A DNA stretch of 64,000 nt, from IMG/VR virus record IMGVR_UViG_3300025401_000012; one strand, given 5' to 3'. Source of the stretch: a virus. Its lineage: Duplodnaviria; Caudoviricetes. A model generated the notes under the pieces. That model was not told the origin of the DNA and made no database searches. It was given only the letters and a program-made list of their open reading frames with translations. The translations under genes and the position numbers were made by a program. Every line of letters begins with the position of its first letter. Positions within the stretch are counted from its first letter, which is position 1. Shown here in pieces: positions 32,454 to 33,502 of this stretch.

Positions 32454-33281
32454 ATGTCAAACAACCCGTTACAAAAGTATTTTAGACAACCAAAAGTTTT
32501 TATCAAGCTACCTTCGGGCGGTATCTACAGCAAGCCTGGAACTATACAAGGCGATGTTACACACATGCCTATATTTGGCATGACTGGCATGGATGAAATC
32601 ATTAGTAAAACTCCAGATGCACTGTTAACCGGTGAAAGCACGGCATCTTTGATAGCCAGTTGTTGTCCTAACATCAAGGATCCATGGGAATTAAGTATTA
32701 TTGATTTAACTATCATTTTGGCAGCTATTCGTATTGCTACCTACGGTAATACCATGGCTGTAACACATACTTGTACCAATTGCAACACTGAAAATGATTA
32801 TGATTTAGAATTAAATCGTGTGATAGAACACTATATGAACTGCCAATATGACAGTAGAATTGTGCTAAATGACTTGACAATACAGCTAGTGCCTATGACT
32901 TACCGTCAAAGTACCGAGTTTAATCTAAAGAATTTTCGTTTACAGCAACAAGTTGCTCAGGCCGAAGTCATGGATGATGAAAAACAACGTCAAGTTTTAG
33001 TGGCAGCTTTGTTTAAAGACTTGGCTTTAGTACAAAATGAAATTTATAAAATCACTATTGAAAGTGTCAGCACCGGTAGTCAAGTAGTAACTGAGCGTGC
33101 TTGGATCTTAGAATGGTTAGAAAATGCTGACCGTTCAGTATTCGATGCTATTAAAGCCAAGAACGCACAAAACAATGATGCATGGACCATGCCCAAGTTT
33201 CCAGTCAAATGCGATACTTGCGGAACTGATGCTAACTTAACTATTGAACTAGACCAAGCAAATTTTTTCGTAAAAGCCTAA
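32454..33281 (+). CDS. Baseplate hub assembly / tail chaperone protein, T4 gp26-like (275 aa)
   Basis: NPLQKYFRQPK...LPSGG, MT-x-x-DE...KTPDALLTG, DL...AIRIATYG, two CxxC pairs (CTNC, CDTC); perfect TATAAATA and GGAG SD upstream. Confidence 0.8.
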   Translation: MSNNPLQKYFRQPKVFIKLPSGGIYSKPGTIQGDVTHMPIFGMTGMDEIISKTPDALLTGESTASLIASCCPNIKDPWELSIIDLTIILAAIRIATYGNTMAVTHTCTNCNTENDYDLELNRVIEHYMNCQYDSRIVLNDLTIQLVPMTYRQSTEFNLKNFRLQQQVAQAEVMDDEKQRQVLVAALFKDLALVQNEIYKITIESVSTGSQVVTERAWILEWLENADRSVFDAIKAKNAQNNDAWTMPKFPVKCDTCGTDANLTIELDQANFFVKA

Positions 33282-33502
33282 TTAGTCTCACACCTCAAGA
33301 AATCGAAACAAGATTAGTTAGGCTCGACAACGAAGTTAAAAATTTCAAGCAAGAATTATTTAAAATTTCTTGGTACATGAGAGGTGGTGTTACTGTAGAT
33401 GAGCTACTAACTCTTTATTCTTATGAAGATCGTGAAATGATCTATAATGTTATTAATGATAACATTGAAATGACCAAAGAAACTAAGATGCCATTGCTAT
33501 AA
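33278..33502 (+). CDS. Start-less 74-codon frame (LISLTPQEIE...ISWYMRGGVTVDELL...MPLL), gp51-like by position and WYMRGG motif; probably reached by -1 frameshift from the gp26-like gene
   Basis: Hand translation; open -1 frame overlapping the gp26-like stop; only in-frame early ATG is at 33377 with no SD. Confidence 0.7.
   Translation, partial: LISLTPQEIETRLVRLDNEVKNFKQELFKISWYMRGGVTVDELLTLYSYEDREMIYNVINDNIEMTKETKMPLL

Follow-up and report, generated by a model that had tools for sequence, protein, structure and literature searches.

Results

The gp26-like locus

The window, meaning the whole 64-kb stretch of DNA analysed here, comes from an uncultured freshwater giant phage and carries on its plus strand, at positions 32454-33281, a gp26-like tail-assembly gene encoding 275 aa (Table 1). 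This product, the short form, matches Pfam family PF12322 (T4_baseplate) over residues 51-265 (E 1.8e-13; 51.1 bits against a cut-off of 24.5) and phrog_150 ("baseplate hub") over positions 2-234 of 282 (E 5e-16), the curated profile cut-off for the T4 gp26/gp51 family being exceeded across the whole domain. An AlphaFold2 model of the short-form core reached a pLDDT of 87.9; neither sequence search nor fold search returned a relative of the core in the PDB, and its relatives in AlphaFold DB are only uncharacterised "baseplate" proteins. The gene is preceded by a Shine-Dalgarno sequence and by TATAAATA (32425-32432), a motif resembling the late promoters of T4 and, given the gp55-like gene in the window, a putative late promoter. 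No second copy of the family was found within the 64-kb window; Atu_ph07, PA5oct, A4 and XacN1 have one copy each and T4 has two.

Table 1. Features of the gp26-like locus, in window coordinates
Feature	Position	Strand	Remarks
TATAAATA, T4-type late-promoter-like motif	32425..32432	+	Read from sequence; 21 nt 5' of ATG
GGAG Shine-Dalgarno	32443..32446	+	Sequence; 7 nt 5' of ATG 32454
0-frame ORF, short form	32454..33281	+	275 aa, gp26/gp51 family; four conserved Cys (C107, C110, C253, C256); alignments A1, A2, A7
A AAT TTT, overlapping second heptamer	33260..33266	+	X XXY YYZ phase; not universal among relatives
T TTT TTC, conserved -1 slippery heptamer	33263..33269	+	X XXY YYZ phase; in phase in relatives
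-1 frame extension	33269..33502	+	77 codons and TAA; C-terminal tail of the predicted 349-aa long form; alignments A3, A6, almost gapless
5' arm of predicted stimulatory stem	33275..33288	+	5-6 nt after heptamer; contains the 0-frame stop
3' arm of predicted stem	33311..33324	+	Pairs with 33275-88

The gene is divergent from two genes on the minus strand, which encode a Gly/Ala-rich protein of 350 aa (31342-32394) and an Ala/Glu/Lys-rich protein of 962 aa with internal repeats (28396-31284), the latter a presumed tape measure. Since neither neighbour had a Pfam, PHROG or phage tblastn match, their roles are judged solely from size, composition and position. On the other side of the locus, just after the stop of the predicted long form, the segment 33491-33558 is common to many other contigs in four freshwater runs, with a summed depth of up to ~3,600 vs ~105 on its flanks. 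A hairpin (GAAGAAC-TAAC-GTTCTTC, 33503-20) lies inside this segment and was not called a terminator by a consensus scan, which returned nothing directly after 33502; the segment may be a repeated terminator-like element of this phage population. Farther downstream, 33795-33927 on the minus strand is a full-length match to Rfam RF01718, Polynucleobacter-1 RNA (99 bits, gathering score 37, E 4e-22), directly downstream of a SegE-like GIY-YIG gene (33929-34366, minus strand), and is a possible sign of a freshwater host of the Polynucleobacter type.

The proposed slip site and the -1 frame

The gp26-like gene ends, in the 0 frame, with GCA AAT TTT TTC GTA AAA GCC TAA, the stop codon lying at 33279-81. 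The sequence-only reading of this DNA had pointed to two overlapping slippery heptamers four codons before the stop, and both are present and in the phase of the X XXY YYZ class. A slip at either would yield an identical protein. Only T TTT TTC proved to be conserved, however: among relatives A AAT TTT requires a preceding codon with A as its last base and is absent where that codon is TCG, TCT or ACT. For this lack of conservation, A AAT TTT was discarded as the operative site. No Rfam family was found at the slip site.

From 33248 up to the TAA at 33500-02 the -1 frame is free of stop codons, so that the claim of a frame open through the site is correct. Following a slip, it would encode the 77-residue peptide RKSLISLTPQEIETR...KMPLL (RKSLISL...KMPLL), and the predicted long form is 349 aa in length since 272 residues would be read in the 0 frame and 77 in the -1 frame. 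That this frame offers no start codon backed by a Shine-Dalgarno sequence was likewise confirmed: the only ATG, GTG or TTG before codon +40 is the ATG at 33377 (codon +36), which lacks a Shine-Dalgarno sequence and encodes the Met of a conserved WYMRGG motif.

Relatives and the junction sample

A DNA search found no match among deposited phages with the locus. The protein relatives are giant myophages at 26-30% identity, namely Agrobacterium phage Atu_ph07, Sinorhizobium phage Phosso, Pseudomonas phage PA5oct, Xanthomonas phages XacN1 and XaC1, Yersinia phage fHe-Yen9-04 and the E. coli Asteriusvirus group. With the 78-residue tail as query, matches were obtained only in Atu_ph07 and Phosso, both of which encode it in the -1 frame where the gp26-like gene ends. 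Junctions were collected from 7 annotated loci, 24 IMG/VR loci and 29 metagenome loci, which yielded 56 complete junctions or, without duplicates, 42; these derive from cultured giant phages and metagenomes and span 27-84% protein identity. The sequences are related, and junction counts therefore overstate the number of independent events.

None of the public records inspected annotates the slip. Small separate coding sequences are annotated at the tail in the records of Phosso, XacN1, XaC1, the Yersinia phage, A4 and Atu_ph07, with starts at varied, non-homologous places inside a conserved peptide. In the record of fHe-Yen9-04 (locus L006, 1989-2864), the gp26-like gene itself is labelled "Lead, cadmium, zinc and mercury transporting ATPase", a name probably assigned in error on account of the CxxC pairs. 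An in-frame fusion of short form and tail was not found among the best 120 of 953 homologues, 119 of which are at most 296 aa long, the remaining one being a shorter truncated protein.

Conservation of the heptamer and of the -1 frame

Alignment of the junctions, a check proposed with the original reading, found the heptamer and the -1 phase kept in all 42 distinct junctions, as T TTT TTC in 41 and as T TTT TTT in one (XacN1, with seven T); the carriers include Atu_ph07, Phosso, PA5oct, XacN1, XaC1, Yersinia phage fHe-Yen9-04 and E. coli phage A4. Outside the junction, the same genes use TTT for 267 Phe codons and TTC for 127, and the third base of their two-fold NNY codons is T in 1408 cases and C in 997, from which xxT TTT TTC is expected, with amino acids fixed, at a frequency of 0.128 per lineage. 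Conservation of the heptamer is thus beyond chance, being complete (42/42) where ~13% would be expected per lineage. What follows the two Phe codons in the 0 frame is not kept, with a further 1, 3, 4, 10 or 11 codons of unrelated sequence before the stop.

The -1 frame opens 0-15 codons 5' of the site across relatives, and its tails align almost gaplessly across all clades. The first -1 codon after the slip encodes Arg in 31 of 33 distinct contexts, by CGT, CGG, CGA or CGC in 12, 8, 6 and 5 of these, respectively, and the same bases read in the 0 frame specify V, G, E, A, D, R or I. Retention of Arg through all four CGN codons therefore indicates selection on the -1 frame 5' of the 0-frame stop. 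For codons 8-36 of the -1 frame, 5' of the first ATG, variability at codon positions 1/2/3 was 0.34/0.16/0.52 and 0.42/0.27/0.53, which is a coding pattern. At the nucleotide level, the most conserved islands of the locus are 33253-33303 (the slip site and the 5' stem arm) and 33355-33393 (the WYMRGG region); these two segments were also the sole matches of at least 90% in contigs of diverged relatives from the same freshwater runs.

These data bear on whether the downstream ORF might be a separate small gene, translated by initiation of its own or by reinitiation coupled to the gp26-like stop, with no frameshift. Six of the public records noted above do annotate small coding sequences there, and in three relatives (Atu_ph07, L001 3007-3010; Phosso, L002 3007-3010; and L058) an ATGA sets a -1-frame ATG across the 0-frame stop, at one codon's distance past the heptamer, such that in these three the tail could also be made separately, as a possible second route. 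However, the annotated starts are non-homologous and the peptide 5' of them is conserved with the coding pattern of the -1 frame, the window clade has no start codon before codon +36 and none there with a Shine-Dalgarno sequence, PA5oct has none in 40 codons, and the Arg directly after the heptamer, 5' of the 0-frame stop, is under selection. The relatives were also examined for loss of the slippery site or for a conserved start codon and Shine-Dalgarno sequence belonging to the downstream ORF, and the proposal of a frameshift survived, as most have no such independent signal and the site is kept throughout. A separate gene is consequently regarded as very improbable.

Two overlapping frames could also result from an artefact, such as an indel introduced into the T run by sequencing, or from the recent disruption of what had been one ORF, and homopolymer runs are indeed error-prone. 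In four freshwater runs that carry no flag as source of the window, contigs cover 33100-33542 (in one case only 33175-33541) with zero differences and zero indels, and an assembly error was dismissed because these independent runs span the site in this way. Moreover, seven cultured phages with finished genomes share this layout, as do dozens of metagenome contigs of independent origin, and against decay there is purifying selection on both frames. The chance that the arrangement is artefactual or decayed is accordingly negligible.

A predicted stem downstream of the heptamer

Folding of 33263-33345 gave a minimum free energy of -19.9 kcal/mol (z -4.5), with none of 200 shuffles as good, and predicts a stem of 13-14 bp (Table 1). 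In the window clade (n=9), 90.5% of cells are paired and four pairs have changes on both sides; none of 500 shuffles reached the observed pairing or covariation, and slid controls paired in 16-50%. A second clade together with Atu_ph07 (n=13) shares the closing stem GGCU(U/C)UUG / CAA(A/G)AGCC, in which a U-A pair is replaced by C-G in five sequences. The 5' arm starts 5-6 nt after the heptamer in most relatives, and the distance to the 3' arm differs by clade, the other clade having its 5' arm where the window clade does and its 3' arm farther off. No convincing stem was found in five relatives (L030, L060, L061, XaC1 and the Yersinia phage).

The stem and the heptamer also allow transcriptional slippage to be weighed, whereby RNA polymerase would add one U within the run of six T so that the same proteins arose from a shift already present in the mRNA. 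The site is a homopolymer, XacN1 has seven T, and runs of U7 and A7 are slippage-prone (PMC4066793). Nevertheless, exactly six T followed by C are found in 41 of the 42 junctions in X XXY YYZ phase, a constraint that slippage in transcription does not need, and the conserved stem stands at 5-6 nt, a spacing typical of ribosomal frameshifting. Known transcriptional slippage sites are, in addition, usually longer than the T6 run here, which also counts against this explanation. Transcriptional slippage is therefore given a slim chance, and ribosomal frameshifting is preferred.

The tail of the predicted long form

The AlphaFold2 model of the tail comprises four helices (pLDDT 86). A fold search with this model in BFVD gave no match with E <= 0.001, and a Pfam scan of all tails produced chance matches only. 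Complex prediction for core plus tail scored 0.24 against a mark of 0.32, a result given no weight either way. The tail (33266-33499) weakly resembles phrog_23772, "baseplate protein" (E 0.022, positions 177-239 of 244), which may be a family with the tail fused in frame; the gp51 homologues that were scanned fall outside phrog_23772.

A connection to the T4 proteins had been suggested by the sequence-only reading, and it holds on several counts. Both T4 gp26 (model positions 14-235) and T4 gp51 (13-280) belong to phrog_150, the two are paralogous (BLASTP E 2e-6), and gp51, the longer paralogue, has ~48 extra C-terminal residues past PF12322, a tail listed as PF28602 for gp51 homologues. The extension of the window protein aligns to this C-terminus: a profile of the fused protein against a profile of 92 gp51 homologues was colinear to both C-termini with a probability of 96% in a forced global alignment. 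The match is obtained only with the gp51 family profile, as hhalign returned nothing when the tail profile was compared with T4 gp51 as a lone sequence. For the whole tail against the gp51 C-terminus, the local score was 23.8 vs 10.0 +/- 2.0 for column shuffles (maximum 15.5) and the global score 18.8 vs 3.5 +/- 2.2. The first half of the tail alone is not significant, since it scored 12.3 vs 7.3 +/- 2.1 for shuffles; profile-profile comparison supports the second half as gp51-like, with no clear support for the first.

Discussion

A model for decoding of the gp26-like gene

The present observations make it highly probable that a conserved -1 ribosomal frameshift operates at this locus, by which one probable late gene, encoding a baseplate-hub/tail assembly chaperone of the gp26/gp51 family, would be decoded in two ways. 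In this model, the majority of ribosomes would pass T TTT TTC in the 0 frame and terminate at 33281, yielding the short form; on a fraction, the predicted stem that starts 5-6 nt downstream would impose a pause while tRNA-Phe occupies the P site and the A site over the heptamer (33263-69). These ribosomes would then slip backward by one base and read on to 33502 to make the long form, in which the first 272 residues of the short form are joined to a helical tail of 77 residues. The original proposal of a programmed -1 frameshift joining the gp26-like gene to a start-less ORF is supported, at the level of sequence comparison, by a frameshift signal and its conservation, by selection that begins at the slip site and acts on the -1 frame, and by the conserved stem; from these features we infer the slippage itself, and its rate. 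By analogy with T4, the short form may act like gp26 and the long form like gp51 in assembly of the hub and tape measure, and the best reading at present is that a single gene with a slip supplies what genes 26 and 51 supply in T4.

It is also conceivable that one gene with a frameshift was the ancestral state of the gp26/gp51 pair across the T4-related supergroup, and that the two genes of T4 arose by duplication and loss of the slip site, although this scenario is held to be doubtful. Were it true, T TTT TTC with its stem, whose 5' arm is fixed and whose 3' arm can shift in position, would represent a second, independently evolved chaperone frameshift, undescribed for these giant phages. The model also corrects the annotation of a widespread gene, as the records of Atu_ph07, Phosso, PA5oct, XacN1, XaC1, fHe-Yen9-04 and A4 give a stray small ORF or nothing at the tail. 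PA5oct and A4, moreover, are cultured phages in which the obscure roles of gp26 and gp51 could be studied as those of one gene with a tunable ratio of forms.

Comparison with known systems

Sharma et al. (2014; PMC4066793) rank motifs of the H_HH.U_UU.Y class, to which the heptamer belongs, with those that promote -1 frameshifting most efficiently in E. coli. The U_UU.U_UU.C sites of IS elements and of E. coli reporters fall in the same heptamer class and likewise have a hairpin a few nucleotides downstream (PMC4066793); those sites, however, lie in genes unrelated to the gp26-like gene.

Tail assembly chaperones provide the closer functional parallel. [quoted passage not shown] The proposed logic is the same: a tail-assembly gene whose ribosomes slip by -1 close to the end of its short ORF yields, in a fixed ratio, two proteins with a shared N-terminus. 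Chaperones of the lambda type are further characterised by binding of both forms to the tape measure and by recruitment of the tube through the tail of the long form. The tie to the G/GT paradigm drawn in the sequence-only reading stands as regards this logic of short and long forms, but it did not extend to sequence or fold: no tail assembly chaperone family was found in Pfam or PHROGs for the window protein, nor any PDB match by sequence or fold. The likeness to lambda G/GT is consequently one of logic and not of family, as no similarity to lambda gpG was found. Position differs as well, since a gene of the lambda G/GT type lies between the tube and tape-measure genes, whereas the window gene is divergent from the genes for the 350-aa and 962-aa proteins.

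The relation of T4-like phages to this paradigm has been addressed before. According to the PRFect paper (PMC10885494), which cites Vladimirov, Gautam and Davidson (2022), some T4-like phages encode the short chaperone in one gene and, in a second, longer gene, a fusion of the short part with the downstream part, in place of a frameshift. A second paper (PMC12846349, 2025), which uses the names TAC-N and TAC-NC for tail assembly chaperones, cites the same work (Vladimirov et al., 2022; Virology 566:9-15) for poly-T -1 signals in the TAC-N genes of T4-like phages. To judge from these two papers, the link between gp26/gp51 and the tail-chaperone paradigm has evidently been published already (Vladimirov et al., 2022), and it is therefore less novel than the earlier reading of this DNA assumed. 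No description of the present slip was found in the open literature. The short and longer T4-like genes in question are unnamed in both citing papers, and we take them to be those for gp26 and gp51.

The most direct comparison remains that with T4, in which gp26 and gp51 are hub assembly chaperones (Leiman et al., 2010; PMC3004832). T4 gp26 (208 aa) and gp51 (249 aa) belong to the same family as the window protein (PF12322, phrog_150), gp26 matching the short form in extent and gp51 being colinear with the long form to both C-termini. The window proteins are larger than those of T4 (275 and 349 aa), and the tail is ~25 residues longer than that of gp51. In T4 as in the window, the gene is divergent from an adjacent operon of structural genes, putative in the window. 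T4 gene 26 has an annotated internal product, 26', and its stop is overlapped by the TAATG start of gene 25 (L008, 3803-3830, minus strand); gene 25 is thus shifted by -1 with respect to gene 26 and starts three codons past the conserved FF. T4 has two genes, 26 and 51, and no slippery site, the FF of gp26 being spelled TTC TTT, whereas the window phage has one gene and a proposed frameshift where T4 has two genes. The comparison supports the published view that the short/long chaperone rule of long-tailed phages extends to T4-like phages, which depart from it in appearance only.
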